Shown piece after piece: positions 1 through 21,770 of a stretch of DNA of 64,000 nt; the stretch's first letter is position 1, and each line of letters begins with the position of its first letter. The DNA is taken from assembly GCA_017507215.1 (NCBI GenBank), contig JAFWBI010000007.1, positions 20,910 to 84,909 of the forward strand, read 5' to 3'. The notes under the pieces were generated by a model that worked only from the letters and a program-made list of their open reading frames with translations, made no database searches and was not told the origin of the DNA. This stretch comes from Clostridia bacterium. GTDB lineage: Bacteria; Bacillota; Clostridia; Christensenellales; UBA1242. A program made the position numbers and the translations under genes.

Positions 1-34
1 TCTGAGCTTGTGAAAGTTGCTTAAAAATAAAATC

Positions 35-69
35 AAATCCGTTTTTTGGGATTTTGAATTTGTTATAAT
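35..69 (+). promoter_or_regulatory. Extended -10 promoter with AAATCC-N8-GGATTT palindrome in place of a -35 box
   Basis: AAATCC (35-40), 8 nt, GGATTT (49-54), 9 nt ending TGT, TATAAT (64-69); AAGGAG RBS at 81-86. Confidence 0.6.
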
Positions 70-92
70 AAGAGTGTGAAAAGGAGATAAGC

Positions 93-158
93 ATGATTAT
101 TGTTGTTATATTTTTTATTTATGTCACAATAAATTTCCTTGTTGGGCTTGGTGGTTAA
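93..158 (+). CDS. 21-aa hydrophobic micropeptide, or 5' part of a disrupted membrane-protein gene
   Basis: ATG after AAGGAG; MIIVVIFFIYVTINFLVGLGG*; a second hydrophobic ORF (179-364) follows in another frame. Confidence 0.3.
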   Translation: MIIVVIFFIYVTINFLVGLGG

Positions 159-376
159 TATAACTGAAAAACAAGCAGATGCGTTTGCTGGTTTTGATGC
201 AAAACAGCTTTAAGAGTGTGTCAATTTTTGAGTGGCTTGATGAAGTTGTTTTGAAAAACAATGCTGCTAGATTCTTTTTGCAAGTATTCATTTTTTTGTT
301 TTGGCTTGGTGGTTTGTCACATTTTCATCAAGTTATCCTACCTTCCTTTCAAATATATATCTAATGTGAAAAAATT

Positions 377-402
377 GGGCAGAAAAAATCTGCTCTTTTT
401 TT
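377..402 (+). terminator. Intrinsic terminator
   Basis: GGGCAGA-loop-TCTGCTC followed by T7, then GTGCAAAAAT. Confidence 0.6.
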
Positions 403-419
403 GTGCAAAAATGGGCTTG

Positions 420-454
420 AAATCCTTTTTTTAGGATTTGGTTTGTGTTATACT
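420..454 (+). promoter_or_regulatory. Promoter of WYL operon with AAATCC-N8-GGATTT palindrome
   Basis: AAATCC (420-425), 8 nt, GGATTT (434-439), 9 nt, TG-N-TATACT (-10 at 449-454). Confidence 0.65.
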
Positions 455-486
455 CAAAATGTGAAATTCTTTTTTAGGTGGTGTTT

Positions 487-1473
487 ATGATTAGTGAAAA
501 GAAAGGTTCAATATTGTATACTCTTGAAATTTTGAAGGCGTATTCTGATGAACAGCACTTGCTGACTTATGAAATGATTTCAGACAAGCTTTATCATGGC
601 TACGGGCTTGAAATTGAAAGAAAGACTATTGCTCGTGATATTGCCATTTTGCAAGAGTTTGGCTATGACGTTGTGAAGAAGGGCAATCGTGGACTTTATC
701 TTGGTTTTCGTGACTTTGAAGAAGGTGAGCTTTTATATTTGATTGACGCGATTTATTCATCAAAGTCAATGCCAACAAAATATGCAAAAGACCTTGTTGA
801 AAGACTTACAAAAAATCACAGCAATTATAAAAAGAAAAAATATAAATATCTTGAGAAAATTGATGATGGTGCACGAACCGACAACAAAGAAATTTTCTGG
901 ACCATTGAGCTTTTGAATGAAGCTATTGAAAAGAAAAAGAAAGTTGAGTTTCAATATGGTGCATATGGCATTGATAAAAAAATTAAGCTTAAGGGCGATG
1001 GAAAGTTTTATAAAATCAATCCATATTTCATGGTGAACAACAAAGGAAAGTATTATCTTGTTTGCAACTATGACAAATATGATGATGTTTCGAACTATAA
1101 AATTGAGTGCATTTCAAACATAAAGATTCTAGATGAAGACATCAAGCCTATCACAGAGCTTCCAAGCAACAAAGATTTTTCGGTGAAAGATTATGTGAAA
1201 GAGCATGTTTATATGGCGTTTGGGGAGTCTGTTGATGCTGAAATCAGAATTGCATCTGAAGAAAAGATTAATGACTTTATTGACTGGTTTGGCAAGGATT
1301 CGTCAATATTCAAAAAGGGCGATGACATTGTTGCAACCTTGAAAGTCAATGAAGAATCACTTATTTTCTGGGCACTTCAATATGGTCAGCACGTTGAAGT
1401 TTTGAAGCCGATTGAAACCAGAGAGAAAATTAAGAAAATTTTAAATGGTATGGTCGAAAAATATAACAAATAA
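487..1473 (+). CDS. WYL-domain transcriptional regulator (wHTH-WYL-WCX)
   Basis: N-terminal wHTH (ERKTIARDIAIL), WYL core (INPYFMVNNKGKYYLVC..YKIECISNI), WCX tail (WALQYGQHVEVLKP); ATG 487 follows AGGTGG. Confidence 0.9.
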   Translation: MISEKKGSILYTLEILKAYSDEQHLLTYEMISDKLYHGYGLEIERKTIARDIAILQEFGYDVVKKGNRGLYLGFRDFEEGELLYLIDAIYSSKSMPTKYAKDLVERLTKNHSNYKKKKYKYLEKIDDGARTDNKEIFWTIELLNEAIEKKKKVEFQYGAYGIDKKIKLKGDGKFYKINPYFMVNNKGKYYLVCNYDKYDDVSNYKIECISNIKILDEDIKPITELPSNKDFSVKDYVKEHVYMAFGESVDAEIRIASEEKINDFIDWFGKDSSIFKKGDDIVATLKVNEESLIFWALQYGQHVEVLKPIETREKIKKILNGMVEKYNK

Positions 1474-1490
1474 GAAGGTGGGAAAATATT

Positions 1491-2315
1491 ATGAATATTG
1501 AAGAATTAAAAGCTTTGTTTGAAGAAGATGTTTCATTTGAACAAATTGAAGAACTTGTTTCTGATGATGTTTTTGCCGGAGCGTCAAAACTTGGAATTGA
1601 TTATGCAGAAAAACTTGGGTTTGAAAGTTTTGAAGATGCTCCATTTTGTCTTGAGCAGGTGACTCCAGGAACGGTCAGTGTGGTTGTTGATGATGGGGTG
1701 AAGCCTGTTGTTGAACTTATGAAAAAACTTGCTAAAGAACAAAGTGACACAAAAAGAAAAAATGCAGACCATTATGAAGCTTCATTTTGTTTATATGGAA
1801 GAATGAAAGATGGAAAAATTGCAATCACAGACGGTTTTTGGGACGAAAGGGGCTATCAGCCAAATGCTTATAAATATGCAGACCCAGATTCTTTGAACTA
1901 TGGCAGTTTTTTTGCAGACTATTCAAATGTGACAACAACTTCAAGGTGGTATGACAGAAAGGTTGATGCTGTTTGTGATTCTGCAACTCCAGATGGTTCG
2001 CTAGTTGTGATTTATGGTCACACACACCCACAAACAAAAGAACTTGGAAAAGTGAATAACTATCCGTCAAGAACAGATGTTTCTCTTGCTGTTGAAGAAG
2101 CTGTTACTCGTTACACTCAAGCAAATGGCTCTTGTTCATTTTTGAATGCAATCATCAACGCAGATGGTGATTTAAACATTTTTGGATTTGATGTTGAAAC
2201 AGGAAAGTTTTTCATTTTAGATGATGTTAAATATAAAAGTGGAAAAAAGATTGCGGCATACACTGAAGAAAACTATCCTATTCAAGTTGGCCCAACTGGA
2301 CCAAGTTCAAAATAG
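1491..2315 (+). CDS. JAB/MPN-like metallopeptidase-domain protein
   Basis: YEASFCLYG...GHTHP...NYPSRTD resembles the E..HxH..S..D JAMM motif; 17 nt after the WYL gene with RBS. Confidence 0.6.
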   Translation: MNIEELKALFEEDVSFEQIEELVSDDVFAGASKLGIDYAEKLGFESFEDAPFCLEQVTPGTVSVVVDDGVKPVVELMKKLAKEQSDTKRKNADHYEASFCLYGRMKDGKIAITDGFWDERGYQPNAYKYADPDSLNYGSFFADYSNVTTTSRWYDRKVDAVCDSATPDGSLVVIYGHTHPQTKELGKVNNYPSRTDVSLAVEEAVTRYTQANGSCSFLNAIINADGDLNIFGFDVETGKFFILDDVKYKSGKKIAAYTEENYPIQVGPTGPSSK

Positions 2316-2326
2316 GGGGGGGGATT

Positions 2327-2431
2327 ATGAGCGAAAATAAAAACGAAAAAGAATCAGAAGAAGAGCTTGATGATTTGGAATTTGATGAAATGAACGACAT
2401 TTGGGACGAAATGGACGAAGAAGAACTTTAA
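2327..2431 (+). CDS. 34-aa highly acidic micropeptide (not in ORF track)
   Basis: MSENKNEKESEEELDDLEFDEMNDIWDEMDEEEL*; preceded by a G9 tract as possible SD; followed by terminator. Confidence 0.55.
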   Translation: MSENKNEKESEEELDDLEFDEMNDIWDEMDEEEL

Positions 2432-2443
2432 ATTTTTGCAATA

Positions 2444-2473
2444 AAAAAAGATAGCAAATTTGCTATCTTTTTT
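2444..2473. terminator. Bidirectional intrinsic terminator
   Basis: AAAAAAGATAGCAA-AT-TTGCTATCTTTTTT between convergent genes. Confidence 0.8.
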
Positions 2474-2477
2474 GTTT

Positions 2478-3050
2478 TTATTTTTCTTCAGTTGCTTTTG
2501 GCTGAGCATCTTCTTTTTGGGCGAGTGCACCTTTGATTTTTCCAGTGCAATAAATTGAGAAGAAACCACAAATAAGACCAAGAATGGTGTAAACTGCAAG
2601 AATTGCAAGCATAATGAAGCAATCAGACACTTCAGAAAGTGGAGCAAGAGAAGTTCCAAGACCACTAAACGTCAAGAAGATTCCGGCAAAAACACCTGTG
2701 ATTGAGTTGAGCCAAAGTTTTTCGGTTTTATCGAGCATCATCACAAGTCCATTAACAATAAACACACCAATCAAACAGCTGATGCTGATGTTTCCAAGAT
2801 TTAAATCGAACGAATTGGTGATTGACATCATCAAAAGTGCAGCAACAAAACCAACAATGACTCCGATGAAACCTTTGATTCTGTCTTTAATGCTTGCGCC
2901 ATAAAAGATTGTCCAAATTGCAAATCCAACCCACATAAACGAGCCACCGTCAACAAATAAGCCACCAATTAGTGCGTCAACAATGTAAAGTGCACTTGCA
3001 AGAACAGCAATAAGCAGTGGAATTGCAAACCATTTTAAATAAATTTTCAT
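2478..3050 (-). CDS. DUF1097-like integral membrane protein
   Basis: Several TM helices, MWVGFAIWTIFYG motif; start moved to ATG 3050 after AAGGAG. Confidence 0.6.
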   Translation of the reverse strand: MKIYLKWFAIPLLIAVLASALYIVDALIGGLFVDGGSFMWVGFAIWTIFYGASIKDRIKGFIGVIVGFVAALLMMSITNSFDLNLGNISISCLIGVFIVNGLVMMLDKTEKLWLNSITGVFAGIFLTFSGLGTSLAPLSEVSDCFIMLAILAVYTILGLICGFFSIYCTGKIKGALAQKEDAQPKATEEK

Positions 3051-3188
3051 AAATTTCTCCTTTTTGTAATCTATTTTCATTTTATAAAAACAGGAAAGAT
3101 TTTGCAAATGAATGAAAGTTATATTGCTAAATTTATTGTTAAAATCACAATGTTTATGATATTATAAGGGCATTAAAGGAGAATTTTT

Positions 3189-3605
3189 ATGATTCCAGAA
3201 TATTTGCACAAGGTGCAATACTATGAAACAGACAAAATGCAAATCACTCATCATTCAAACTATGCAAGGTTTATGGAAGAAGCTAGGCTTGATTTTATGG
3301 AAAGAATTGGCTATAGCTATGACAGAATGGAGCGAGAAGATATTTTTTCACCAGTGGTGAGCATTTCTTGTGATTTTAAAAAGCCTACAACTTATGGTGA
3401 TTTAATCAAGATTGATGTTTCAGTGCTTGAAATTTCAAGGGCAAAAATCAAGTTTGAATATATTATGAAAGTTGGTGACAACGTTGTTTGCAAGGCAACA
3501 AGCACGCATTGTTGTTTGAATAAGCAAGGCAAAATCTTGGCGCTTGGAAAAGAAAAACCTGAGCTTTATGAGCTTCTTGAAAGTTTAGTGAAAAAAGATA
3601 TTTAA
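3189..3605 (+). CDS. Acyl-CoA thioesterase (YbgC/4HBT hot-dog family)
   Basis: VQYYETDKMQITHHSNYARFMEEAR motif. Confidence 0.9.
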   Translation: MIPEYLHKVQYYETDKMQITHHSNYARFMEEARLDFMERIGYSYDRMEREDIFSPVVSISCDFKKPTTYGDLIKIDVSVLEISRAKIKFEYIMKVGDNVVCKATSTHCCLNKQGKILALGKEKPELYELLESLVKKDI

Positions 3606-3621
3606 AGGGGAGATATAATTT

Positions 3622-4122
3622 ATGTTAGAATATAAAAAGATTACAGAAGAACACAAAGAGCAACTTTTTGCGCTTATCGACAGGGTGCTTTCAAACATTC
3701 CTGATAACCATTTCATTCCTTATGAACAGTGGGAACTTGACAGCATGTTTGATGAAGAAAACTATGCGCCACTTTATGGTGCTTTTGATGGTGACAAGCT
3801 TGTGGGCATGGCTCAGCTTTATGTTTCGCAAGACATGATGGCTGGTTTTAAGAAAGATTTTGATTTGCAAGAATATTCAGTTTGTGAACTTGGTGGCAAC
3901 CTTGTTCTTCCTGAATATCGTGGAATGGGCATCACAACAACACTTCAGAAAATGGAACTTGAAATTGCAAGGGAACGTGGGTTTGACTACATTATTTCAA
4001 TGGCGCACCCAGAAAACCCTGCAAGCTGCAAAACTCTTGAAAGAGTTGGCTTGAAGTTTTATAAAACCATGGAAGTTGCCGGTGGCTTTTTGAGAAACTT
4101 ATATATGCTTAAACTTAAATAA
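3622..4122 (+). CDS. GNAT family N-acetyltransferase
   Basis: VLPEYRGMGI motif A; HPENPASCKTLERVG motif B. Confidence 0.9.
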   Translation: MLEYKKITEEHKEQLFALIDRVLSNIPDNHFIPYEQWELDSMFDEENYAPLYGAFDGDKLVGMAQLYVSQDMMAGFKKDFDLQEYSVCELGGNLVLPEYRGMGITTTLQKMELEIARERGFDYIISMAHPENPASCKTLERVGLKFYKTMEVAGGFLRNLYMLKLK

Positions 4123-4132
4123 GGAAGTGCTT

Positions 4133-4675
4133 ATGAAGATTTATGTTATGCGACATGGTGAAACCGTTTGGAATGCGAAGGGAATAACTCAAGGTCGCTC
4201 AAACAACAGGCTTAGCAAAAATGGAAAGATTCAGGCTGAGATGACGGCTGAAAAACTCAAAAGTGAAAAGATTGATTTGATTGTTTGCTCACCACTTATG
4301 CGAACAGTTCAAACTGCAAACATTATGAATCAATATCATGGCGTGAAAATTCTTAAAAATGAAAACATAAATGAAGTCGACCAAGGTATTTTCACAGGAA
4401 GGCTTTTCAAATCACTTTCAGAAGAAGAGAAAAAAATTAAAAGTCAAAGGTCTAAATCTTGTGGAATGGAATCGGTTGAAGAAGTGACACAAAGGGCAAA
4501 AAAATTTATCTTTGAGCTCAAGCAAAACTATTTAGGAAAAAAGGTTTTGGTGGTCACTCACAATTTGGTGGCTTGTGCGATTGAATCTATTGCAAAGTTT
4601 GGCGATTTTGACGATTCTTATTTTAGAAATAAAGTGAATTTTGCAAATGCAGAACTTAAAGAAATTGAAATTTAA
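4133..4675 (+). CDS. Histidine phosphatase (PGM-like) family protein
   Basis: RHGET, SPLMRTVQT, LVVTH motifs. Confidence 0.9.
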   Translation: MKIYVMRHGETVWNAKGITQGRSNNRLSKNGKIQAEMTAEKLKSEKIDLIVCSPLMRTVQTANIMNQYHGVKILKNENINEVDQGIFTGRLFKSLSEEEKKIKSQRSKSCGMESVEEVTQRAKKFIFELKQNYLGKKVLVVTHNLVACAIESIAKFGDFDDSYFRNKVNFANAELKEIEI

Positions 4676-4696
4676 CAGCAAAACTGCTGTTTTTTT
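4674..4696 (+). terminator. Intrinsic terminator
   Basis: AACAGCA-AAAC-TGCTGTT plus T tract. Confidence 0.65.
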
Positions 4697-4756
4697 CTTT
4701 TTTTGGCTCGGCGAAATTTGTCAAAAAATTGATATAAAAAAATAACAATTTGGGTA

Positions 4757-4785
4757 TTGACATATGGCTTGTTCTGTATTATAAT
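4757..4785 (+). promoter_or_regulatory. Consensus sigma-A promoter of the 4810-8158 operon
   Basis: TTGACA (4757-4762), 17 nt, TATAAT (4780-4785); AAGGAG RBS follows. Confidence 0.85.
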
Positions 4786-4809
4786 ATTGATACTTAGAAA
4801 GGAGATTTT

Positions 4810-5370
4810 ATGGAACAAATGCAAATCAACGGCGAAGTCGTTGACGCTTTTGACATTACAAATAATGAAGATTTTCCATTTGCAGATACTTGGAAAAAGA
4901 CTTATTCTGCAATAGAACAATCATTAGAAGAATTCGGTGACCTGACAGAAAAAGAGAGAATACTCAAAAAAGTTGCAGGCTTGGTGAATGTGCTCGTTCG
5001 CCATGGGTCAACTTATGAAGACATTGTTCTCGAAACTGCTCAGGTTTATGTTTTTTCTAAGGAAACTGGCATCGACCCAAATGAATTTGCAAATATTTTC
5101 GGAAAATATGTCATTCTGGGTGCCAAATGCTTAAATCAAAAACTCGATAATGAAGAAAGCATGAAATCGGTTTTTGAGAATGCAGAGATGAGATATCTTG
5201 GCAAAATCAAAATTGCTGAATATATCATTGATTTGGTTTTTAATGGCAACGATTCAAAAGAGTTACTTTTTGAAATTGATGCTGTTTTAAATAAATATAA
5301 AGATAGGACACACAAAGGTCTTGTCAAAATATTAATCACTGAATGTGATAAATTAAAGGGAGAAATTTAA
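4810..5370 (+). CDS. Degenerate RelA/SpoT-type HD-domain (Mesh1/SAH-like) pseudo-hydrolase
   Basis: ETAQVYVFSKETGIDPNEFANIFGKYV aligns by eye with AALLHDVVEDT..LEEI...FG..V, and KIKIAEYIIDL with VKLADRLHNL; HD dyad absent. Confidence 0.5.
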   Translation: MEQMQINGEVVDAFDITNNEDFPFADTWKKTYSAIEQSLEEFGDLTEKERILKKVAGLVNVLVRHGSTYEDIVLETAQVYVFSKETGIDPNEFANIFGKYVILGAKCLNQKLDNEESMKSVFENAEMRYLGKIKIAEYIIDLVFNGNDSKELLFEIDAVLNKYKDRTHKGLVKILITECDKLKGEI

Positions 5371-5372
5371 TA

Positions 5373-7208
5373 ATGGATAATGAAAGAAAAATAGAAGTGG
5401 CTGACGAACTTTTCGACAGGGTTTACAGGGGAGAACACAGAGAAAACGTTCAGCGCTTGGTGGCAAACATTAAAGCTGACCTTGAAAATATTCCGGGGGT
5501 TGAAAGTTTTGTTATTTCAAGAATCAAAGCGCCACTTTCAATTCTTCAAAAATACGACACAGAAGAAAAATATTCTGTGGGCTGGAACAGCATGAAAGAC
5601 CTTTTAGGTTTTATGGTTGTTGTTGATTCAAACCAAGACGTTGATGAAGTTTTATATTACATGGACACAAACTATCGTGGCATGAAAAACCCAAACTCAT
5701 CACAGCTTTATCGTGACTTTAGAAAGAAACCAATTCGTGAGCTTGACCCATCAAGACCAAAGATTTTTGACCAACCATCTCCAAAAGGTTATCAAATCAA
5801 CGATGGCTACAAAAACGTCAGAATTAACATGATGATTAACCCTGATGATGTCAATCAAGCAGATGGTTACCCAATCGAAATTCAAGTTAAAACAAAAGAA
5901 CAATATATCGCTCACATGGCAACTCATGACCCTGTTTATAAGGCTAAGTCAATCAGTGACTCATCTGAAGCACATAGAGTTTCTGATGCACTTTTCCCAT
6001 ATTTTGAAGCAGTTGCTCATTTGAAACTTGAAAGAGATAAAATGAAACCAGCAGAAATCGAAAGATGCAAAGCAGACATCAAAGCAATCTTCGAAAGAAA
6101 CAAAGATATTTATGAACAATATCCAGACGTTTTCAACGAAGCTTGTAGTATTTTTGCTGTGTATACATTTGTTGTTAAAAATAAAGAACGTCTTTATGCA
6201 GACGAATTTTTAGATGACTCAGTTGTAAACAACCAACTTTTGGAAAGTGAAATTTTGAGAATTTTCTATTACAAGCAAAAAGGAATGCTCACAGCTGACA
6301 AATCACTCACAGACAGTAAGTCTTACATGAAAGCAGCAGAAGAAATTATCAATATGTCTTATGACGAATTTGTTAAACTTTCAACAGAACTTGCTGGAAG
6401 CTATCGTAAAGAAAAATGTATCATTTCTGGTATCTTTGACATGATTCGTGAAAAAGATATTAAGCTTATTCAACGTTGTGCAAAGAGCTTTAGAAAGGTT
6501 ATTGTTTCTGTTTATGATGACGAGCTTGTTAAAATCTTCTTGGGTGTTGACCCAATGTATTCTGTTGAAGACAGAATGAAAGCTCTTGAAATGCTTGACG
6601 ACGTTGCTATTGTTAGCAAAGTTGACCTTTCAGGAATCGTAAGTTATAAAGACAATGTTGAACCATTCATCATTGAAGAACCACAGGGCAAGAAATATAA
6701 GATTGGTTATCTTCCAGGTGTGTTCGACATGTTCCACCCAGGTCATATTGAATATATCACTCAAGCACTCGAACTTTGTGACAAACTTATCATTGGCATC
6801 AAAACTGATGAATATTCAATGATTCACAAAAACAAAACTCCAATTCAAAATCAACAAGAACGTCTTTGCATTGCAAATGCACTTGTCGGCATTGAAGAAG
6901 TTTGTTTGACTGGTCGTGACATTCTTCCACCAATCGATGTTTTGGAAGAACTTGATGCAGCTGCAAAAGCAGGGGATAAGGTTGCAATTTTCTTAGGTTC
7001 TGACTGGATGATTGAAGAAAAGAGAAAGAAAAAGAGTCCACTCAGCCTTGCAGAACATGTGTTCTTGACAAAAGAATATCCAGACATTGTTTTAGATAGC
7101 ATTCCAAGGGGAGAAAGTGGCAGGTCAAGCACTGGCTATCGCAAACGTGGAAATGATGCTGCAAAATTCATCAATCCACACGAATTAAAAACTTTAGGGG
7201 TACAATAA
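5373..7208 (+). CDS. RelA/SpoT synthetase domain fused to two cytidylyltransferase-like domains
   Basis: SRIKAPLSILQK, KDLLG, DGYKN, PIEIQVKT, THDPVYK; then degenerate GIFDMIREKD and intact GVFDMFHPGH..GSDW..RGESGRSST (TagD-like). Confidence 0.85.
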   Translation: MDNERKIEVADELFDRVYRGEHRENVQRLVANIKADLENIPGVESFVISRIKAPLSILQKYDTEEKYSVGWNSMKDLLGFMVVVDSNQDVDEVLYYMDTNYRGMKNPNSSQLYRDFRKKPIRELDPSRPKIFDQPSPKGYQINDGYKNVRINMMINPDDVNQADGYPIEIQVKTKEQYIAHMATHDPVYKAKSISDSSEAHRVSDALFPYFEAVAHLKLERDKMKPAEIERCKADIKAIFERNKDIYEQYPDVFNEACSIFAVYTFVVKNKERLYADEFLDDSVVNNQLLESEILRIFYYKQKGMLTADKSLTDSKSYMKAAEEIINMSYDEFVKLSTELAGSYRKEKCIISGIFDMIREKDIKLIQRCAKSFRKVIVSVYDDELVKIFLGVDPMYSVEDRMKALEMLDDVAIVSKVDLSGIVSYKDNVEPFIIEEPQGKKYKIGYLPGVFDMFHPGHIEYITQALELCDKLIIGIKTDEYSMIHKNKTPIQNQQERLCIANALVGIEEVCLTGRDILPPIDVLEELDAAAKAGDKVAIFLGSDWMIEEKRKKKSPLSLAEHVFLTKEYPDIVLDSIPRGESGRSSTGYRKRGNDAAKFINPHELKTLGVQ

Positions 7209-7210
7209 TT

Positions 7211-8158
7211 TTGAATAAATTTAAAAACACAAAAGAAGTTTTAGACAACTTAAACGAACTTCCAATTTATATCGCAGGACACTTAAAACCAGACCAAGAC
7301 TCAGTTGGTTCGTGCATGGCTCTTGCGTTATATTTGAAGTCTAAAGGCAAAGACGCCTACATTCTTTTAGAAGAGTTTGACAAAGATATTCTTTCTTGGA
7401 AAGGTGATTATTCTTTGGTGAAGACAGCTGTTTCGCACGAAAAATATAATTTTGTTGCGCTCGACCTTAATGAAAAGAAGCGTCTTGGAAGTTTTGAAAA
7501 AGACTTTGACAAGGCTGAATTTAAAATCAATATTGACCATCATCAAGACAATAAATATGAAGCAGACCACACACTTTCAATTCCGGGAATAAGCTCAACT
7601 TGTGAGATTATTTATGAAGTGATTAAAAGTGAAGGAAAGCAAGTTTTTTCAAAAGATATTGCTGAATATTTGTATGCTGGCATGATGAATGATACAAACT
7701 GTTTTACCAGAAGATTGTCGAAAAAAACAATGATGATTGCTCAAAAACTCATCAACTATGGTGCAGATTATATGAGAATCATCAAAAAGACTTTCTCTGA
7801 AAGAACAATGTATTGGTTTAAAGCACTTGCGAAACTTGTTAATGAAATTCAGTTTGATGGATTCCACTATGCAGTGGTTGACAAGTCACTTCCTGAATAT
7901 AAAGACTTAACACACAACAACATTGTGAAGCAGATTGCTGAAGACCTTAGAAAAATTGACGGAATTGATGTGTTTTTGATGCTTATCAAAAACGGAGACA
8001 CCATTGTTGCAAAAGTTATGAGCAACACCAGCGAATGTGCTGACAAACTTGCAGCTGTGTTTGGTGGTGGGGGTCACAAAAAAGAAGCAGGATTCACAAT
8101 CAAAAATGTTTCAGTTGAAGAAATTGTTTCTAAAGCTAAAGAATTTTTAAATAAATAA
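7211..8158 (+). CDS. DHH-DHHA1 phosphoesterase (NrnA-like)
   Basis: GHLKPDQDSVGS, NIDHH, SSTCE, GMMNDT, FGGGGHKKEAG. Confidence 0.92.
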   Translation: MNKFKNTKEVLDNLNELPIYIAGHLKPDQDSVGSCMALALYLKSKGKDAYILLEEFDKDILSWKGDYSLVKTAVSHEKYNFVALDLNEKKRLGSFEKDFDKAEFKINIDHHQDNKYEADHTLSIPGISSTCEIIYEVIKSEGKQVFSKDIAEYLYAGMMNDTNCFTRRLSKKTMMIAQKLINYGADYMRIIKKTFSERTMYWFKALAKLVNEIQFDGFHYAVVDKSLPEYKDLTHNNIVKQIAEDLRKIDGIDVFLMLIKNGDTIVAKVMSNTSECADKLAAVFGGGGHKKEAGFTIKNVSVEEIVSKAKEFLNK

Positions 8159-8160
8159 AC

Positions 8161-8190
8161 AAAAACACCAATGATTTTGGTGTTTTTTTT
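8161..8190 (+). terminator. Intrinsic terminator closing the RelA-CT operon
   Basis: AAAAACACCAA-loop-TTGGTGTTTTT plus T tract, then GTGCAAAAATT. Confidence 0.85.
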
Positions 8191-8262
8191 GTGCAAAAAT
8201 TATTAAAATTCTATGAATAAAAATTTAGATGTGCTATAATTTTTTTGTAGAAGGAAAGACTT

Positions 8263-8913: not shown

Positions 8914-8929
8914 CATCTATGCTTTTTTT
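8901..8929 (+). terminator. Intrinsic terminator
   Basis: AAAGCATAGAT-loop-ATCTATGCTTT plus T tract. Confidence 0.75.
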
Positions 8930-12815: not shown

Positions 12816-13010
12816 ATGGAAAATATTGAAATTGATGAAAAAGAATTAATTGAAAAACTTGAAAAAGTGGAAGCAAAAAAACAAGAAATCAACAACAAAC
12901 TCAAAAATATGACAGAAGAAGAACTTGCAAACTATATGATGCAATCTATCAACGAAAGTGTTGAGTTTGCAAAGAAAAACGATATTGAAATTGTTGAGTG
13001 TGGAGATTAA
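12816..13010 (+). CDS. Small protein, putative antitoxin; probably leaderless
   Basis: 64 aa immediately upstream of PIN gene; TTGAAA-17-TATAAT ends 6 nt before the ATG. Confidence 0.55.
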   Translation: MENIEIDEKELIEKLEKVEAKKQEINNKLKNMTEEELANYMMQSINESVEFAKKNDIEIVECGD

Positions 13011-13012
13011 TC

Positions 13013-13681: not shown

Positions 13682-13683
13682 AT

Positions 13684-14394
13684 ATGAAACTTTTACTATG
13701 TTCAGATTACTCAGGAGTTGGGTATAAATTTATAAACAAGTTTTTTGATAAAACAGAAGGGCTCACATGTTTGTTTGTTGGCTATGCTCAAGATGACCCA
13801 TATGAGCTTCAAAGTGGAACGGCTGTGAAGTTTCGAGAAATGGGTGTCAAAGTGATTTCTCTTCAAGAAGGTTATCGTTTTGAAGATGAAATTGACATTG
13901 TTTTTGTGCGTGGTGGAAACACAACAAGACTTGTTCATCATCTTTTAAAATTTAATCAATTTGAAAAAGTTAAAGAGCTTGTCGAGAAAAAGGGTGCAGT
14001 TTATATCGGCAGCAGTGCAGGGTCGGTTCTTGCAGGAAGTGACACTGAATATTGTCTTAGAAGTGAGCCTTATGATTATGATGTGAAAGGTGAGTTTGGC
14101 GAAAATGCACTCAAGGGTTTTGGCTGGATTGACAAAATGGTTTTTGTGCACACCACACCAAACAGAATGTGCTACTCAGACGAGATGCAAAATGAAAATG
14201 ATTTTTTCATCACGCCAGACACTTTTTGTTATCCGGCTCATATGGAAGAGATTGAAATTTATGACAAGTCACTTTATATTGAAATTGGAAACGAACAGGC
14301 GCTTTATGTAAGTGGAGAAGATAGAGAACTTTTAACAGATGATTGGAGCTCTCTTGAATTTAGAGTTTTAGACTATCTTCAACAACAAGATTAA
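13684..14394 (+). CDS. Peptidase S51 (peptidase E-like)
   Basis: VFVRGGNT, YIGSSAGS. Confidence 0.85.
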   Translation: MKLLLCSDYSGVGYKFINKFFDKTEGLTCLFVGYAQDDPYELQSGTAVKFREMGVKVISLQEGYRFEDEIDIVFVRGGNTTRLVHHLLKFNQFEKVKELVEKKGAVYIGSSAGSVLAGSDTEYCLRSEPYDYDVKGEFGENALKGFGWIDKMVFVHTTPNRMCYSDEMQNENDFFITPDTFCYPAHMEEIEIYDKSLYIEIGNEQALYVSGEDRELLTDDWSSLEFRVLDYLQQQD

Positions 14395-14500
14395 AAAACG
14401 CAAAATTCTTCAAAAATGCTGAAAATTTGGGGTGTTATGTGACGCATAATACCAAAAATCTGCGATTTTTTAAAAACAAAAACAGTAAAGGAGCAAATCT

Positions 14501-17500
14501 ATGAATGATAAGGCTAATGAAAAAACGCAATCAAAAAACAATCGAAAAAAAATAATTGTTTCAATTTCGGTAGCGCTTGCAGTGGTGTTGATTTCTTTGG
14601 TGTCAGCGCTTTGTTATGTGTTTGTTCCAAGAAATCCAAAAATTGAAAGTTCGAGCGTTTTGGATATTGACCCAGAAACAAAAGTGGCAACTTGTGTGGT
14701 TGATAATGAAACAGAAATGTTTTCTTTTGATGGGGTTATAAAAGTTCCAAAAAACAACGACTGGTTTTTATATAAAGACATTGAAGGCGTAGATGAAATA
14801 AAAACAAAACAAGTTGAGCTTGAGCCTGGTGACAACACTTTTTATTTGATGGTTGAAAACTCTGCTGGAAAGAAAGAATTTTATGTGGTCACAATCAGAA
14901 GAAAACCACTTTATGAAGTGACATTCAACACAAACGGTGGCTCGTTGATTAACGCACAGGAAATTGAAGAAGGGTTGACTGTTGAACTTTCAGAAATCCC
15001 AACCAAAAAAGGTTACACATTTGCAGGTTGGTTTGTTGATGAAGATTTAACAACTGAGTTTGAAGCAAATTCTGTGGTGGCAAATGATTTGATTTTATAT
15101 GCAAAGTGGAATGTTGTAGATTATTCTATCACATATCACTTAAACGGTGGCACAAATAGCGAATTGAATCCACAAACATACACAATTAATGATGAAATTA
15201 TTTTTGCAGAGCCAACGAAAACTGATAGTTTATTTATTGGTTGGTTTGCAGACAGCGATTTGACAAATCCAATTACAAAAATCGAAACTGAAACAACTGG
15301 AAATGTTGAGATTTGGGCAGGTTGGTACCATGAAAAATGTTTTGTTAGTTTTGATGCAAATGGTGGTGAAGTTGAAACAAATGAAATGCTTGTGAACAAA
15401 AATGAATATTGTGTTTTGCCGGTGCCAACAAATGCTGGGCATGAGTTTGCTGGTTGGTATAACGGAAAAGAATTGCTCACCGATATTCACGGAAACACGC
15501 TTAGAAGCATTGGTGAAAACGAAGTTTTAAATTTAACTGCGCATTGGGACGACACTTCAACTGTTACATTTGAAACAAATGGTGGAACGCCTGTTGCAGA
15601 GCTTAGTTTTATCACTGGTTCAGATATCATTTTGCCAGCAAATCCAACAAAATATGGTTATGTGTTTGACGGGTGGTTTTACGATAATGGTTATTTTTTA
15701 GAAGAATTGAAAGAAACAACGGTTATGTTAAACAAAAACATAATTCTTTATGCAAAGTGGGTTGATTACACCTTTGAAATCAAGCACTCAAACAAGGTTG
15801 CAATCAGCGTTAACGACACACTCAGCTCGGCACTTTTCGAAGCGATTGCAATCGACAATGCAGGAAACACCTTTGCTGTTTCAGTTGAAAACTTAACAGG
15901 AACGCAAAATGCAGGTGACGTTATTGAAATCAAGTTCACAGCAAATGGGCTTTATGGTGAAATTGTAACTGAAACTATTAAAAATGTTAAAGTTTATGAA
16001 AATATTGAAATAACTTATAACCGTGAAGAGTTGTTTATTTATGAAAGTGAGCAATTTGAAGACTTTGTGGTTGCAACTGACGAATTTGAAGAAGATGCAG
16101 AAATTGTTGTTCAAATCGTTGATGGTGAGTTTGCTGCAGGAAATGTTGTGACAATCAATGTGACAGCAACTGACGTGGCAGGAAACACAAAACAAAAGCA
16201 GTTCACACTTGATGTTTTATCAACTTCGCAAGTTTATGTTTCAATGTTTGATGAAGTGAATGATTTGAAATTTGACTATGAAATTATTGAAACAAATCAG
16301 GATTTTGAGCTTGGCGAATCATACGTGATTTATGACGATTCAAGCAAAATTTACACCGATGCAGAAGGAAAATCAATTCTTCAATTTGAAGGCAAGGGTT
16401 ATCGAAAAGTTTATGTTGATAATTCACGTGCAATCAAAACAGTTGAGCATTTGAAGGCAATAAGTGGGGCAACTTTAGACGGAAAAATTGTTCTTCTTGA
16501 CAACATTGACCTTAACGGCGAAGAATGGCAGCCTATTGTTGAGTTTAAAAATGGAATTTTTAATGGAAATGGGTTTGTTGTTTCAAACTTTAAAATTACA
16601 ACCGGAAGACAATGGAATGGATTTTTTGGTATAATTTCTAATTCAACAATAGAAAAATTAGGACTTGAAAACTTTGTTATTGATAATGAATATAAAAGTG
16701 GATGTGATGTTGGTGGATTAGTTGGAGAAGTTAAGTCATCAACAACCATTAAAAATTGTTATTCAACCGGAAGTATTTCAATTTCAGGAGATTATAATTA
16801 TTTTTATATTGGTGGATTAATTGGTGAAATTTTTGGTTCAAATGTTAATATAACGAATAGTTATGCTACTGGAGATGTTGAAATTTTTGTAACACAAAGA
16901 TCTGCTTTCGCAGGTGGCTTGGTGGGGTATTCTTCTTCAACATTTGAAATTTTAAATTGTTACGCTACAGGAGATGTATCTGCAGAATCTGAGCAAAGTT
17001 ATGCTTATGCAGGTGGCTTGGTTGGACATACATCCAATTCAACCAAGTCTGCCACAATAAAAAACAGTTACGCAACTGGGGAAATTTCTGCAGTCAATAC
17101 TGATTTAACAGGTTCAACTTATATTGGCAGACTTTATGCTTCTGGAAACCCTGAAGTTGTTGGTTGCTATGAATTGATGGGGGCTATAAAAATAAATGCG
17201 AAGGAAGACTTAACTAAATATTCAAATTATACTTCGGTTGTGGAAAGTTTTGAGCTTATGTCAGATATTGACTTAGAAGGTGCAGAATGGATTCCAATTA
17301 ATCTTTTAGGTGGAAGTTTTAATGGAAATGGATTTGTTATTTCAAACTTTAAAATTACAACCGGAAGACAATGGAATGGATTTTTCAGCAGTGTATCTAA
17401 TTCAACGATAAAAAATCTTGGGCTTGAGAGTTTTACTATAAACTATGAATATTCAAAATATAATTCAGCCGGATGTTTGGTTGGATATTTGTCATCATCA

Positions 17501-18151
17501 AATATCAAAAGTTGCTATGCAATTGGTGATATTTCAGTTGAAAACACTAGAACTGATTATGAAAACTATGTTGGTGGATTAATTGGAAAATCAAATTCTT
17601 CAAACATCTCAAATTGTTATACAATGGTTGGTGTGAGTGATAAATTTACTGGACAAATTTCAACTGGTTGCAAACCTTATGCAGGTGGATTGATAGGATA
17701 TGACACTTCTTCAACAATCTCAAATTGTTATGCTGCAGGCACTGTTTATTCACATGGCCAAGAAGGAATTGGTGGCAGTGATATTTATTCTGGTGGATTA
17801 ATAGGAAATGCTTCGTCTTCAATTATTATCAACTGTTTTGCAACTGGAAGTGTGACTTCATATGTTTCAAATTCAAATGCAAGACAAGATAGAACATATG
17901 CAGGTGGTTTGGTTGGTTATTCGTCAAATGTGACAATTACAAATTGTTTAAGATATGAAAATCAAGAAATTAGTGCATCTAGTGCAAATAAGACAGGCAG
18001 TTCAAGTGGGATTGTTGCAACAATCAACACTGAAGGCGTGAGTGCTTCATTGGAAGAAATTTGGGCATTTGTGAAAGAGAATTTTGATGATGAAGTTTGG
18101 AATTTATTTGATGACAAAAACCCAACTTTGAAGTTTGAAGAAAGCGAATAA
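14501..18151 (+). CDS. Large membrane-anchored surface protein with InlB B-repeats and GLUG-motif repeats
   Basis: N-terminal TM; four F.TNGG..PTK.GY.F.GW..LYAKW repeats; many GGLVG/GGLIG and N(S/C)YATG repeats. Confidence 0.85.
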   Translation: MNDKANEKTQSKNNRKKIIVSISVALAVVLISLVSALCYVFVPRNPKIESSSVLDIDPETKVATCVVDNETEMFSFDGVIKVPKNNDWFLYKDIEGVDEIKTKQVELEPGDNTFYLMVENSAGKKEFYVVTIRRKPLYEVTFNTNGGSLINAQEIEEGLTVELSEIPTKKGYTFAGWFVDEDLTTEFEANSVVANDLILYAKWNVVDYSITYHLNGGTNSELNPQTYTINDEIIFAEPTKTDSLFIGWFADSDLTNPITKIETETTGNVEIWAGWYHEKCFVSFDANGGEVETNEMLVNKNEYCVLPVPTNAGHEFAGWYNGKELLTDIHGNTLRSIGENEVLNLTAHWDDTSTVTFETNGGTPVAELSFITGSDIILPANPTKYGYVFDGWFYDNGYFLEELKETTVMLNKNIILYAKWVDYTFEIKHSNKVAISVNDTLSSALFEAIAIDNAGNTFAVSVENLTGTQNAGDVIEIKFTANGLYGEIVTETIKNVKVYENIEITYNREELFIYESEQFEDFVVATDEFEEDAEIVVQIVDGEFAAGNVVTINVTATDVAGNTKQKQFTLDVLSTSQVYVSMFDEVNDLKFDYEIIETNQDFELGESYVIYDDSSKIYTDAEGKSILQFEGKGYRKVYVDNSRAIKTVEHLKAISGATLDGKIVLLDNIDLNGEEWQPIVEFKNGIFNGNGFVVSNFKITTGRQWNGFFGIISNSTIEKLGLENFVIDNEYKSGCDVGGLVGEVKSSTTIKNCYSTGSISISGDYNYFYIGGLIGEIFGSNVNITNSYATGDVEIFVTQRSAFAGGLVGYSSSTFEILNCYATGDVSAESEQSYAYAGGLVGHTSNSTKSATIKNSYATGEISAVNTDLTGSTYIGRLYASGNPEVVGCYELMGAIKINAKEDLTKYSNYTSVVESFELMSDIDLEGAEWIPINLLGGSFNGNGFVISNFKITTGRQWNGFFSSVSNSTIKNLGLESFTINYEYSKYNSAGCLVGYLSSSNIKSCYAIGDISVENTRTDYENYVGGLIGKSNSSNISNCYTMVGVSDKFTGQISTGCKPYAGGLIGYDTSSTISNCYAAGTVYSHGQEGIGGSDIYSGGLIGNASSSIIINCFATGSVTSYVSNSNARQDRTYAGGLVGYSSNVTITNCLRYENQEISASSANKTGSSSGIVATINTEGVSASLEEIWAFVKENFDDEVWNLFDDKNPTLKFEESE
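16558..17385 (+). repeat. Internal direct repeat of 69 nt (16558-16626 and 17317-17385)
   Basis: Two mismatches; a 46-nt core is identical (TTTCAAACTTTAAAATTACAACCGGAAGACAATGGAATGGATTTTT). Confidence 0.85.
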
Positions 18152-18167
18152 AATTTAATATAAAAAG

Positions 18168-18197
18168 AAAAACACCAACGGTTGTTGGTGTTTTTTT
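18168..18197. terminator. Bidirectional terminator
   Basis: AAAAACACCAAC-loop-GTTGGTGTTTTT between convergent genes. Confidence 0.8.
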
Positions 18198-18207
18198 ATG
18201 GTGTTTA

Positions 18208-19644
18208 TTATAAATCTTCGTAAAGCTCAATATATTTATCGGCACAGTCTTTGATGTCAAAACTTTCGTCCATCACTTGTGCGATATAGCCATTGAGTCT
18301 TTCTTTGTTTTCAAAATGACGAAGTGTTCTATTGATTAGGTCGGTGAGTGTGGTTGCATCATAGTCATTGAATGTGTAGCCGTTTCCACCTTGATATCTA
18401 AAGTCGGTGAAGTTGTCTTTTAAACCACCGGTTTCAAACACGATTGGAAGAGCGCCATATTTGTTTGCGATGAGTGGGCAAAGACCACAAGGTTCAACAC
18501 TTGAAATGTTAAACAAGAAGTCTGTTCCAGCGTAAATCTTTTTAACAAAATGGTTGTCATAACCGAATTTGATTTTTACATTGTTTGGATACTTATCGTT
18601 TAAATATTTCATATAGTTTTGATATTCAGGGCTGCCACCACCGATTCCAACAAATTGAAGTTTGTTTTCTTCAAGATAAGGTTCAATAACTTGTCTTAAA
18701 AGCTCGATGCCTTTGTTCACGCCCATATATCCAACATAAGCATAAACCGGAATATTTGCGTCAACTGGAAGACCAAGTTCTTCTTGAAGTTTGAGCTTGT
18801 TTTCGCCGCGTTTGTCAAGATTATCTTTGTCGTAGGTCACATAAACATTTGGGTCGGTTGCTGGGTTGTAATATTCATAGTCGATGCCATTGATGATGCC
18901 GTGAACTTTGTAGCTCACGCTTTCAAGAATGCCTTGAAGACCGTTTCCTTGTTCGCTGTGCATAATTTCGTCTTTATAGGTTTCGCTTACAGCAACGATT
19001 GAATCTGAGCACATAATGCTTGCTTTCATAATGTTTGCTCTGCCAAAAAAGTCGAAAAGATAGGCAAATTTGTCGTCAACATTCAAAAGGTCTTTAACGA
19101 TATTAAAGTCTGCGATTCCTTGATAGGTTAAGTTGTGAATGTTGAGAACGGTTTTGATATGTTCATATTTTGGGTTTTGCCATTCTAAGATTTTTAAGAA
19201 TGTGCAGACCATGCTTGATTGCCAGTCGTTTGTGTGAATGATGTCAGGGAAGAAGTTTACAAGTGGAAGAATATCAAGCACAGCTTTGCTGAAAAAGCTG
19301 AATCTTTCAACGTCGTCAGGGTAGCCCAAAAGGTTTTCTCTTTCGAAATATTGCTTGTTGTCAATGAAATAATAGGTTATTCCATTAAACTCATATTCAT
19401 AAATTCCACAGTATTCTTTTCTCCAAGAAAGCTCAACGGTTCTTTCACCAATAAGTTTAAAGCCTTCTCTATATTTTTCAGGAATCTTTGAATAGAGTGG
19501 CAAAATAACACGAGCATTGATTTTGCCAGATTTATTCAAATATTTTGGAAGGGCATAGCACATGTCTGCAACCCCACCATTTGCGCAAAATGGAATACAT
19601 TCTGCACTTACAAATAAAACGTCAAGTTTGGTTTTTTCGTCCAT
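18208..19644 (-). CDS. glgA: Glycogen synthase (GT5), with atypical motifs
   Basis: IHTNDWQ, IHNLTYQG, GIINGID, EPCGL; ANGG replaces KTGG; adjacent to glgB. Confidence 0.85.
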   Translation of the reverse strand: MDEKTKLDVLFVSAECIPFCANGGVADMCYALPKYLNKSGKINARVILPLYSKIPEKYREGFKLIGERTVELSWRKEYCGIYEYEFNGITYYFIDNKQYFERENLLGYPDDVERFSFFSKAVLDILPLVNFFPDIIHTNDWQSSMVCTFLKILEWQNPKYEHIKTVLNIHNLTYQGIADFNIVKDLLNVDDKFAYLFDFFGRANIMKASIMCSDSIVAVSETYKDEIMHSEQGNGLQGILESVSYKVHGIINGIDYEYYNPATDPNVYVTYDKDNLDKRGENKLKLQEELGLPVDANIPVYAYVGYMGVNKGIELLRQVIEPYLEENKLQFVGIGGGSPEYQNYMKYLNDKYPNNVKIKFGYDNHFVKKIYAGTDFLFNISSVEPCGLCPLIANKYGALPIVFETGGLKDNFTDFRYQGGNGYTFNDYDATTLTDLINRTLRHFENKERLNGYIAQVMDESFDIKDCADKYIELYEDL

Positions 19645-19653
19645 AAATCCTCT

Positions 19654-21546
19654 CTAATTTTTTTGAACCTTGCGAATAAGCAAGCTTGTGTTTGCTGGAA
19701 TATTCAAACGAATTGCGTGAGCTTTTCCATTTTTGTTCATAATGCTTGAGTGAATAAGCTCGTTGTGTTCGTCAGTTCCACCAAAAAGTTCATCATCTGT
19801 TGTGAAGATTTCTTCATAAGTTCCACTTTCGTCAACGCCGATAACATAGTCGGTGATTCTAAATGGAGAGAAATTACTCACACAATATAGATAATTTCTG
19901 TTCTTGTCATAACGTTTAAACACGCAAACGCAGTTTAAATTGTCATCTTTAACAACCCATTCAAAACCTGATTTGTCGAAGTCAATTTCATACATTTCAG
20001 GGGTGTTGATGTAAAGGTGGTTGAGTGATGAAATGAATTTGCTGAGTTTTTTGTTGTTTTGAGCTTTCAAAAGTTTCCAGTTAATTGGCTCGTCGTGTGT
20101 CCACTCTGTGATTTGACCGAATTCGCTGCCCATGAATGAAAGCTTTTTGCCAGGGTGCATAAACATATAAAGATAGAATGCACGGCAAAGGTCAATTTTG
20201 GTTTTCATGTCATCGCCGTTCATCTTTTTGATGAGTGAGTGACGACCGTTTGCAACTTCGTCATGGTCAACAGGCAAGATGAAGTTTTCATCAAAACAAT
20301 AATCAAGAGTGTGAGTCAAAATCTTGTGATGATATTTTCTAAAGTGTGGGTCCATTGAAGTATATTCCCAAATATCGTTCATCCAACCAACATTCCACTT
20401 AAAGTTGAAACCGAGTCCACCGATTGTTGTTGGTTTTGTAACCATTGGCCAAGAAGAAACTTCTTCGGCAATCATGAGTGCATTAGGGAACTCGCTGAAG
20501 ATGCAGTTGTTTAAATTCTTCAAAAACTCAACACCTGCATAGTTGATGTTGTTTCCGTTGACGTTAGGAATCCACTCGTCAGGGTTTCTGCAGAAATCGA
20601 GATATAAAATCGCAACGCAAGCATCAACTCTGATTCCGTCAAAGTGATATTTTCTCATATAGAAAAGAGCACTTGCAAGCAAGAATTGAGTTACATATGG
20701 GTCTTCATAGTCAAACATTCTGGTTGTCCAAGCAAGTTGATATTTTCTGTCCCACTTTGGGCTTTCGTAAAGTGATTCGCCGTCCCAGTCCATAAGTCCA
20801 AATTCGTGGAAATCGAAGTGGGCAGGAACCCAGTCTAAAATTACGCCAATTCCAGCTTCGTGGCACTTGTCAATGAAATACATAAAATCTTTTGGTTTGC
20901 CATATCTGCTTGTGATTGCGTAATAGCCTTGAACTTGATATCCCCAAGAAATATCTCTAGGGAACTCTGAAAGTGGCAAGAGTTCAATGTGGGTGTATCC
21001 CATTTTTTTAACGTATGGAATGAGTGATGTTGCAAGTTCACGGTAGGTGTAAAAACTGCCGTCTGCATGGCGTTTCCACGAAAGAAGACACACTTCATAA
21101 ATGTTCATAGGTGTATCTAAGTGGTTTTTTTGTTCAAATTTTTCAAAATATTTTGAATCTTTCCATTTATAACCATCAAGGTCATAAATGTATGATGCAA
21201 AGTCGCCATCATGTGTTACGTTTTGACCATAAAAAGCATATGGGTCAGCTTTCACAACTTCTTTGTCGTTTTTGTCAACAACGATATATTTATATTTTTG
21301 AAGGTTTTTAGCCTTTTCAACAAAAACTTCCCACACATTTGAATTTTTGATTCGCTTTAGTGGGTGAGATTCTTTGTCCCAGTTGTTGAAATCGCCAACA
21401 ACAAAAATTTCTTTTGCTTTTGGAGCGTAAACCCTGAAGTAAACACCCGGCTTTCCGTTTTTTCTTCCAAAATGGCTGCCCAAATATTCATAAACTTTTA
21501 AATCTTTGCCATTTTGTATGTTTGAAATTCTTTCTTCTGTCTTCAT
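19654..21546 (-). CDS. glgB: 1,4-alpha-glucan branching enzyme
   Basis: SWGYQ, LDWVPAHF, DGIRVDA, IAEE, HDEV. Confidence 0.95.
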   Translation of the reverse strand: MKTEERISNIQNGKDLKVYEYLGSHFGRKNGKPGVYFRVYAPKAKEIFVVGDFNNWDKESHPLKRIKNSNVWEVFVEKAKNLQKYKYIVVDKNDKEVVKADPYAFYGQNVTHDGDFASYIYDLDGYKWKDSKYFEKFEQKNHLDTPMNIYEVCLLSWKRHADGSFYTYRELATSLIPYVKKMGYTHIELLPLSEFPRDISWGYQVQGYYAITSRYGKPKDFMYFIDKCHEAGIGVILDWVPAHFDFHEFGLMDWDGESLYESPKWDRKYQLAWTTRMFDYEDPYVTQFLLASALFYMRKYHFDGIRVDACVAILYLDFCRNPDEWIPNVNGNNINYAGVEFLKNLNNCIFSEFPNALMIAEEVSSWPMVTKPTTIGGLGFNFKWNVGWMNDIWEYTSMDPHFRKYHHKILTHTLDYCFDENFILPVDHDEVANGRHSLIKKMNGDDMKTKIDLCRAFYLYMFMHPGKKLSFMGSEFGQITEWTHDEPINWKLLKAQNNKKLSKFISSLNHLYINTPEMYEIDFDKSGFEWVVKDDNLNCVCVFKRYDKNRNYLYCVSNFSPFRITDYVIGVDESGTYEEIFTTDDELFGGTDEHNELIHSSIMNKNGKAHAIRLNIPANTSLLIRKVQKN

Positions 21547-21735
21547 AAAATCGCGAGACTCCTTGAATTATTTAAAACAAGAAAATTATAACAAATATAT
21601 AGTGTATTGTCAAACCACAGCATAACCACAATGCTAATTTCGGGGGACAAATGAGCAAAATTTGTATATATTTGTTAAAAATAAAAAATCATATGGATTT
21701 TACTTGTTTTTTAATGAAATTAAAATATAATCTTC

Positions 21736-21770
21736 AAATCCTTTTTTTGGTATATGGCGTATGTTATCAT
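21736..21770 (+). promoter_or_regulatory. Promoter with degenerate AAATCC-N8-GGATTT palindrome
   Basis: AAATCC (21736-41), 8 nt, GTATAT, 9 nt, TG-N-TATCAT (21765-70); same geometry as promoters at 35 and 420. Confidence 0.5.

Follow-up and report, generated by a model that had tools for sequence, protein, structure and literature searches.

A palindrome at a fixed distance from extended -10 elements is a candidate operator of an island-borne WYL-domain regulator in uncultured gut Clostridia

The stretch of 64,000 nucleotides analyzed here (the window; positions 20910-84909 of contig C1 in G000, a Clostridia bacterium genome of 0.68 Mb and 56% completeness) carries an AAATCC-N8-GGATTT palindrome in front of several promoters, among them that of the gene encoding WYL-A, a 328-aa transcription factor with winged helix-turn-helix (wHTH), WYL and WCX domains. 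The motif is real: its core, TCC-N8-GG(A), is centered on the -35 position, and its left arm starts 29 nt before a sigma-A -10 element. Comparative sequence evidence makes it moderately likely that this palindrome is the binding site of homodimeric WYL-A, which is predicted to activate, in the style of the regulator DriD, a small set of sigma-A promoters that have no -35 element. The regulon itself is likely to be a small set of island genes, encoding tiny peptides and loose pieces of FtsK, and not core DNA-repair genes. Comparisons were made across 21 genomes of the genus and a sample of 201 genomes of the family. The features of the window that carry this reading are as follows.

35-54, plus strand: operator-like palindrome 1, exact AAATCC-N8-GGATTT, the top-scoring match of the genome (45.2 bits).
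61-69, plus strand: extended -10 of promoter 1, TG-T-TATAAT, hexamer at 64-69.
93-158, plus strand: open reading frame (ORF) with a ribosome-binding site for a 21-aa hydrophobic micropeptide (17-residue Kyte-Doolittle maximum 2.82).
420-439, plus strand: operator-like palindrome 2, exact, at the promoter of the WYL gene; the same site lies upstream of orthologues.
446-454, plus strand: extended -10 of promoter 2, TG-T-TATACT, hexamer at 449-454.
487-1473, plus strand: WYL-A, the putative binder, with Pfam matches to WYL, WCX and HTH_11 and model matches in Foldseek to PafBC and DriD.
21736-21755, plus strand: operator-like palindrome 3, with two mismatches in the right arm (34.6 bits).
21762-21770, plus strand: extended -10 of promoter 3, TG-T-TATCAT, hexamer at 21765-21770.
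21800-22060, plus strand: FtsK-gamma-only protein of 86 aa, 56% identical to the gamma domain of the host FtsK, with the recognition-helix motif IGYSRAAR kept.

In all three promoters, 9 nt separate the palindrome from the -10 hexamer and 6 nt separate it from the TG; in promoter 1 the 8-nt T-rich spacer covers -35 to -28. Two exact palindromes in the window compare with none in 100 of 100 shuffles; the eight palindromes with up to two mismatches (shuffle mean 6.3) are a count that alone is not above chance. The case for palindrome 3 rests on its T-tract and position rather than on palindromic symmetry, and G003 and G010 have sites at the same place. A sequence-only reading of this DNA had described the two exact palindromes and the degenerate third, their constant 9-nt offset from an extended -10, the missing -35 and the three targets (micropeptide, WYL gene and stand-alone FtsK-gamma gene upstream of xth), and had expected enrichment at this promoter position genome-wide. 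Each of these statements agrees with our searches, the last through a matrix scan of G000 and a strict-pattern scan of the genus.

The exact palindrome occurs three times in the whole of G000, all within 1.9 kb. A position weight matrix, trained on 40 sites from other genomes and partly circular in being seeded from the palindrome motif, recovered six sites at 29.9-45.2 bits, with the next match at 9.9. All six motif promoters lie on contig C1, three in the window and three just upstream (C1:19503, C1:20628 and C1:14489); five are of the AAATCC type, have a T-tract and keep 29 nt from the start of the left arm to that of the -10, and the remaining one (C1:14489) reads ATGTCC. Five of the six fall inside an island that follows smpB-tmRNA, and the other precedes the gamma-only gene, between glgB and xth. 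The island encodes a motor-only FtsK ATPase, an AAA-M41 protease, a metallophosphoesterase, a second WYL protein (WYL-B, C1:16593-17624, 46% identical to WYL-A and 4.7 kb upstream), a GIY-YIG protein, a 38-aa peptide, a gamma-like ORF, the micropeptide and WYL-A. From the ATGTCC palindrome (C1:14489-14508, or 6490-6509 of locus L001), with a -10 at the 29-nt distance on both strands, an operon of AAA-M41 protease, metallophosphoesterase and WYL-B runs in one direction and the gene of the motor-only FtsK ATPase (230 aa) in the other; contig C63 of G008 has a similar arrangement. Among the differences listed between DNA contigs from four sequencing runs, whose strains are ~99% identical, none fell inside the two sites, a comparison that is uninformative at this similarity; no RNA run was listed for this DNA, which says nothing about its expression. 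The GIY-YIG protein (L001:10549-11430) matches the PADLOC UzuA models (E 7e-50).

Across relatives, the strict pattern was run against a backwards control, and returned 30 matches in 14 of the 21 genus genomes where the control returned none. With the -10 left out of the pattern, TAnnnT stood exactly 29 nt from the start of the left arm to the start of the -10 (the distance d) in 29 of 47 matches, by hand count and against an estimated expectation of ~2; the rest are mostly background, since the control gave 13. Among 80 WYL loci, fetched by protein similarity only and with counts inflated by many near-duplicate rows, the -10 lay at d = 29 in 40 of 84 unique core matches, compared with 13 at the next spacing. 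The profile drawn from 45 sites, found with a pattern that already specified the left arm and part of the T-tract, reads AA(A/G)TCC-N-TTTTTT-N-G(G/T)A, after which a tail of varying sequence leads to T-17 and TG-n-TAnnnT. Conservation covers the left arm together with a T-rich spacer falling on -35 to -28; the right arm is degenerate, varying after GGA. Two broader scans were rejected as tests. The plain palindrome at one mismatch, in 61 genomes, was swamped by chance matches and its count was uninformative because it lay above the backwards control in most genomes, whether WYL-A was present or absent, and the loose position-locked pattern was likewise swamped in the 201 family genomes. In that sample the strict pattern matched 16 of 201 genomes, where several singletons look like chance.

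The promoters so marked differ from their background. None of 45 motif promoters reaches four of six matches to TTGACA at a spacing of 16-18, a result that the T-tract of the motif partly forces, but among background extended -10 promoters of G000, 46 of 80 do so (12.8 in shuffled sequence); given this contrast, the missing -35 is a real difference in G000. Three B-type palindromes, as we term those with xTGTCC outer bases (3 of 66 sites), face a -10 at d = 29 in either direction, namely C1:14489 and two in G008, as expected for a symmetric dimer.

Pfam, the structure model and Foldseek together place WYL-A in the wHTH-WYL-WCX family: WYL (39.2 bits) and WCX (28.5 bits) are over their cut-offs and HTH_11 (22.5) is under its own, and NCBIfam gave no family for WYL-A or WYL-B. 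The AlphaFold model (predicted local distance difference test 76.6, predicted template modeling score 0.46) matched PafBC, the top match, and DriD at E ~2e-11, and BrxR/CapW at 6.6e-8 and weaker, although all template modeling scores (TM-scores) were only ~0.3. By sequence, DriD is the best match to a WYL structure (E 1e-3; ~15-18% identity). CapW and BrxR carry an RWHVR repressor motif (PMC11662680), which is absent from WYL-A, where KYYLV stands instead.

Operator type follows the type of WYL protein. Each of the 11 genus genomes that encode a WYL-A-type protein (at least 51% identity) carries a strict match, and in many relatives an A-type site lies upstream of the WYL-A clade gene or operon. 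On a quick tree of WYL homologues, built from 79 rows after three fragments were dropped, loci with the motif group together in the clade of WYL-A. The 31 loci of this clade have 29 upstream AA(A/G)TCC sites and no xTG site, with a site in 27 of 31 loci when both site-calling rules are combined; the other 49 loci have 15 sites in 15 loci, 14 of them xTGTCC (A, T or G first) and one ATATCC, and no AA(A/G)TCC. The two types share the same spacing, and there is no cross-over between clades in the 80 loci. WYL-B belongs with the clades having (A/T/G)TGTCC sites, and the DNA-binding domains differ in step: residue Y28 of the helix-turn-helix is present in 21 of 21 A-clade rows and 0 of 10 B rows, and G65 of the wing in 20 of 21 and 0 of 10. 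The promoter of WYL-B itself (L033, L030, L031, L032) has the palindrome reversed and ~8 nt further from the -10, so placed that the arm TGGACA occupies -35; autorepression is possible there.

What WYL-A might sense was approached through the single-stranded DNA (ssDNA) contacts of DriD (PMC9186387). The pocket is only in part conserved in WYL-A: DriD Y192 is kept as Y190, W206 as Y204 and R207 as K205, K202 is changed to D200, R204 to S202 and Y240 to A244, and Y168, R176 and R178 fall outside the printed alignment. Tyrosines 189 and 190 of WYL-A are invariant in 56 of 56 rows, and the invariant Y157 may correspond to DriD Y168. In DdaA, too, one pocket arginine is replaced by alanine (PMC12392091), and for this reason ssDNA sensing by WYL-A is plausible, at roughly even chance as judged from the alignment.

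The first genes or operons behind the sites encode the WYL protein, hydrophobic peptides of 20-22 aa, a 33-39-aa peptide, gamma-only or gamma-bearing FtsK, a HAD hydrolase, uncharacterized proteins and, in G034, lexA, in a motif regulon of 1-9 accessory promoters per genome. Relatives of the micropeptide, similar ORFs of 20-22 aa, follow a site in G003, G008 and G020, and other hydrophobic ORFs of 20-23 aa do so in G002 and G034. The 33-39-aa peptide, with an invariant N-terminus (L001:11564-11680, or G000 C1:19563-19679, and six relatives), always lies near the start of motif-headed operons and has no Pfam or PHROG match.

The gene at 21800-22060 is not a full FtsK/SpoIIIE translocase: it encodes gamma alone, with no membrane anchor or motor, and the full-length FtsK of G000 is on contig C3. 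Among 16 non-core FtsK-gamma matches in the genus, 12 follow a site, one more is placed after a site by synteny over a contig break, and three do not. A custom gamma hidden Markov model matched in 25 of the 80 WYL loci, and Pfam confirmed 10 of the 13 matches re-checked. Four of eight extra FtsK-ATPase matches follow a B-like site, and two that were checked do not. A search for a skewed octamer resembling FtsK-orienting polar sequences or SpoIIIE recognition sequences (KOPS/SRS) gave nothing distinguishable from coding-strand bias. Upstream of one WYL gene (L181:1922-3805), an FtsK ATPase is fused to a weakly FtsZ_C-like region (26.9 bits, cut-off 27) and a gamma domain, and L178:1814-2830 and L182:3-944 are related split forms without the motor.

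The core repair genes recA and uvrA lie outside this set in G000. The best matrix score in G000 was 4.5 within 3 kb before recA, which is operon-internal in five genomes, and -7.8 within 1.5 kb before uvrA, so that neither has a site; among annotated targets (some matches carry no annotation), no repair gene was identified besides the lexA of G034. That gene (L051:2905-3498; TIGR00498 over cut-off) stands directly after a site. A LexA match over cut-off is present in 7 of 21 genus genomes; none was found in G000, which is incomplete, or in G002, G003, G010, G015 and G020. Upstream of the lexA-like island genes of L048, L078 and L079 (G016, G005 and G017) the sites are reversed or decayed. As a target, xth was rejected, having its own -10 and no site upstream in four relatives with 1.5 kb of flank; it is probably a neighbor and not a regulon member, and as no terminator was found between it and the gamma gene, read-through is possible. 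On these grounds, together with the loss of two basic DriD pocket residues (K202 and R204), the sequence-only suggestion of a LexA-independent repair regulon finds no support. The accompanying proposal that the palindrome is the operator of the 487-1473 protein has good comparative support: co-occurrence with the clade, the site before its own gene or operon and a sister palindrome that tracks sister clades all speak for it, and fixed spacing with a missing -35 supports the activator-type geometry, while the implied DriD/PafBC-like repair response lacks support.

Several observations weigh against assigning the site to WYL-A as an activator. Three of ten genus genomes without a WYL-A match carry a site (G007, G014 and G019, 86-93% complete), as do G072 and G101 of the family sample; four of the 31 A-clade loci show none; and G001 has TTGTCC and TTATCC sites, yet the sole WYL protein found there is A-type. 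The locus counts, inflated as noted, were interpreted on a quick tree. In G016 the sole strict match has a poor -10 and the WYL promoter a degenerate right arm, and four autoregulatory sites lie at d = 30-31. The -10 elements are near consensus, with TG, and could work unaided. Finally, DriD K202 and R204 are D200 and S202 in WYL-A, and the R204 position is A, S, G, T or Q in 56 of 56 aligned rows.

The -10 elements, strong on sequence grounds, invite the reading that WYL-A is a repressor like BrxR/CapW, seated on the -35 region of extended -10 promoters and released by ssDNA to de-repress island or defence genes. Many relatives have the site in front of the WYL gene itself, while DriD does not autoregulate; WYL-A precedes BREX genes in G016 and G115, and further defence-like genes (UzuA-like, HEC-05-like and SMODS 4TM effector) occur in the vicinity; and the reversed palindrome at the WYL-B promoter, with its arm at -35, would suit a repressor. 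We nonetheless regard this reading as unlikely. Activators need fixed spacing across unrelated promoters and loss of the -35, both of which are seen here, whereas BrxR binds downstream of its promoter (PMC9122601); WYL-A has KYYLV in place of RWHVR; and Foldseek ranks PafBC and DriD above BrxR/CapW, low as all TM-scores are. DriD, at promoters that have no -35, uses sites overlapping that position and set at a constant distance from the -10 (PMC13004042), and activation is therefore quite likely if WYL-A does bind.

That the site belongs to another island-borne factor (the FtsK-gamma wHTH, an XRE or LexA-like repressor or an alternative sigma factor), with the WYL link a matter of hitch-hiking, is improbable. 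FtsK-gamma is a DNA-binding wHTH that recurs beside sites, and a few genomes have sites without a WYL-A match; but G015, G016 and G020 have sites and WYL-A with a gamma match only in core FtsK, on which count FtsK-gamma was rejected as the binder. LexA was not found in the six genomes listed above, the -10 is of sigma-A type, and the outer bases switch with the WYL clade. More improbable still is a duplicated promoter or cassette-boundary repeat that no regulator reads. Five of the six G000 sites do lie within 7 kb, and some share GTGTAAAGGAG-like sequence downstream, but positions -21 to -18, which separate the site from the -10, carry ~0-0.3 bits while the right-arm A, T-17 and TG stay conserved, motif promoters head unrelated genes in several genera, and the second palindrome type keeps the same spacing.

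Binding and activation by WYL-A, the explanation we prefer, would make this system work like DriD of Caulobacter crescentus, yet by site and regulon it is not a DriD or DdaA orthologue, and by motif not BrxR/CapW. DriD (~327 aa) is likewise a homodimer-type wHTH-WYL-WCX protein, and here as there the palindrome straddles -35 at a fixed distance from the -10 in promoters without a -35; its small regulon includes a small protein (didA) and one bidirectional site (PMC13004042, PMC9186387). The DriD/DdaA site, however, is CGAC-N7-GTCG and not TCC-N8-GG(A), autoregulation is not part of the published account where here a site precedes the WYL gene, DriD targets recJ, dnaG and bapE and binds the recA promoter where here recA and uvrA have no sites, and its pocket residues K202 and R204 are not conserved in WYL-A. 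DdaA of Moraxellaceae is a WYL activator in a lineage without LexA, with a palindrome found by comparative genomics, and controls the small membrane-anchored division inhibitor AciT and defence genes (PMC12392091, PMC13010146); but it is a global regulator of recA, ssb, uvrA/C, gyrA/B and ruvAB, unlike the patchy, island-borne regulator described here with its few accessory promoters.

The actinobacterial PafBC and SiwR are also HTH-WYL-WCX activators, PafBC being the top Foldseek match, and SiwR binds a 19-bp palindrome that precedes the -10 of neighboring genes (PMC10693628). PafBC differs as a heterodimer with a non-palindromic site downstream of -35, and SiwR in a site that spans -35 to -10 and in controlling DinB-superfamily genes. 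With BrxR/CapW the system shares an island location, a site before its own gene and BREX or defence neighbors, an adjacency not general to all loci; RWHVR is absent here, and for BrxR/CapW the accessible texts describe no fixed-distance multi-promoter regulon. In the main texts of the open-access literature, supplements aside, we found no description of this palindrome or of a WYL-controlled FtsK-gamma gene.

Mechanistically, two winged HTH domains would read the TCC and GGA half-sites one helical turn apart, straddling -35, and the bound dimer would recruit sigma-A RNA polymerase to promoters with an extended -10 alone. The outer bases, AAA/AAG or xTG, would give paralogue specificity, with WYL-A driving the WYL operon, the 20-40-aa peptides and the gamma-only FtsK proteins, and its sister driving the motor-only FtsK ATPases and the AAA-M41 protease operon. 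Most speculatively, the signal might be ssDNA or a related nucleic acid, and the output might slow chromosome segregation or division, or handle invading DNA, in a genus where LexA is patchy. The induced peptides could act like DidA or AciT (PMC9186387, PMC13010146), and the gamma-only proteins could compete with FtsK/SpoIIIE for orienting sites or stimulate Xer recombination, isolated FtsK gamma being able to activate XerD (PMC3130261).

Three neighboring features complete the window near the sites.

1-24, plus strand: 3' end of an FtsK-gamma-like ORF of 81 aa (G000 C1:20688-20933; PF09397 E 8e-7, 29.1 bits, just under the cut-off of 30.6), whose promoter, outside the window, has the degenerate site C1:20628.
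1491-2315, plus strand: 274-aa ORF, 17 nt after WYL-A and possibly co-transcribed with it; no Pfam match.
22119-22894, plus strand: xth (gene 22145-22894), neighbor of the gamma gene, with its own TG-G-TATACT at 22119-22127.

The 274-aa ORF is unrelated to the gene at the same position in G010. Its motif HTH-P...PS-x-x-D may be a JAB/MPN-like histidine motif, and Prok-JAB appeared only as an atlas lead (46% of one cluster). At 5373-7208 the window encodes a 611-aa protein with a RelA_SpoT-like domain and cytidylyltransferase-like domains. Elsewhere, in L062 and L065 (of G016 and G115), a WYL-A-type gene stands between a YspA-SLOG gene upstream and a BREX operon that follows directly, and YspA-SLOG also precedes WYL in G034, G178 and G104. 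Loci L049 and L050 (G007 C104 and G014 C93) have homologous motif promoters followed by a common stretch without a clear ORF, which lies near recombinase or integrase genes and is possibly a small RNA or an element end.

DriD-type activation at -35 is documented in Proteobacteria and related WYL activation in Actinobacteria; the present system adds a Bacillota candidate whose operator is defined. Dozens of promoters in uncultured gut Clostridia carry the palindrome at one fixed distance, with outer letters that follow the adjacent WYL sub-family, and a paralogue pair with different outer bases in one genome makes both the WYL recognition code and the question of activator versus repressor directly testable. 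Orphan FtsK-gamma proteins, common in databases and with no function found in the literature, are hereby tied to a stress-type regulon. A broader proposal, which we offer tentatively and consider rather doubtful, is that in Christensenellales-type gut Clostridia without core LexA, mobile WYL activators with paralogue-specific operators may switch on a split FtsK toolkit of gamma-only readers and motor-only ATPases, sometimes fused, together with membrane micropeptides, and that this would be a checkpoint or a response to invaders not described before, set off by ssDNA and acting by blocking or rerouting both the translocation of the chromosome and division.

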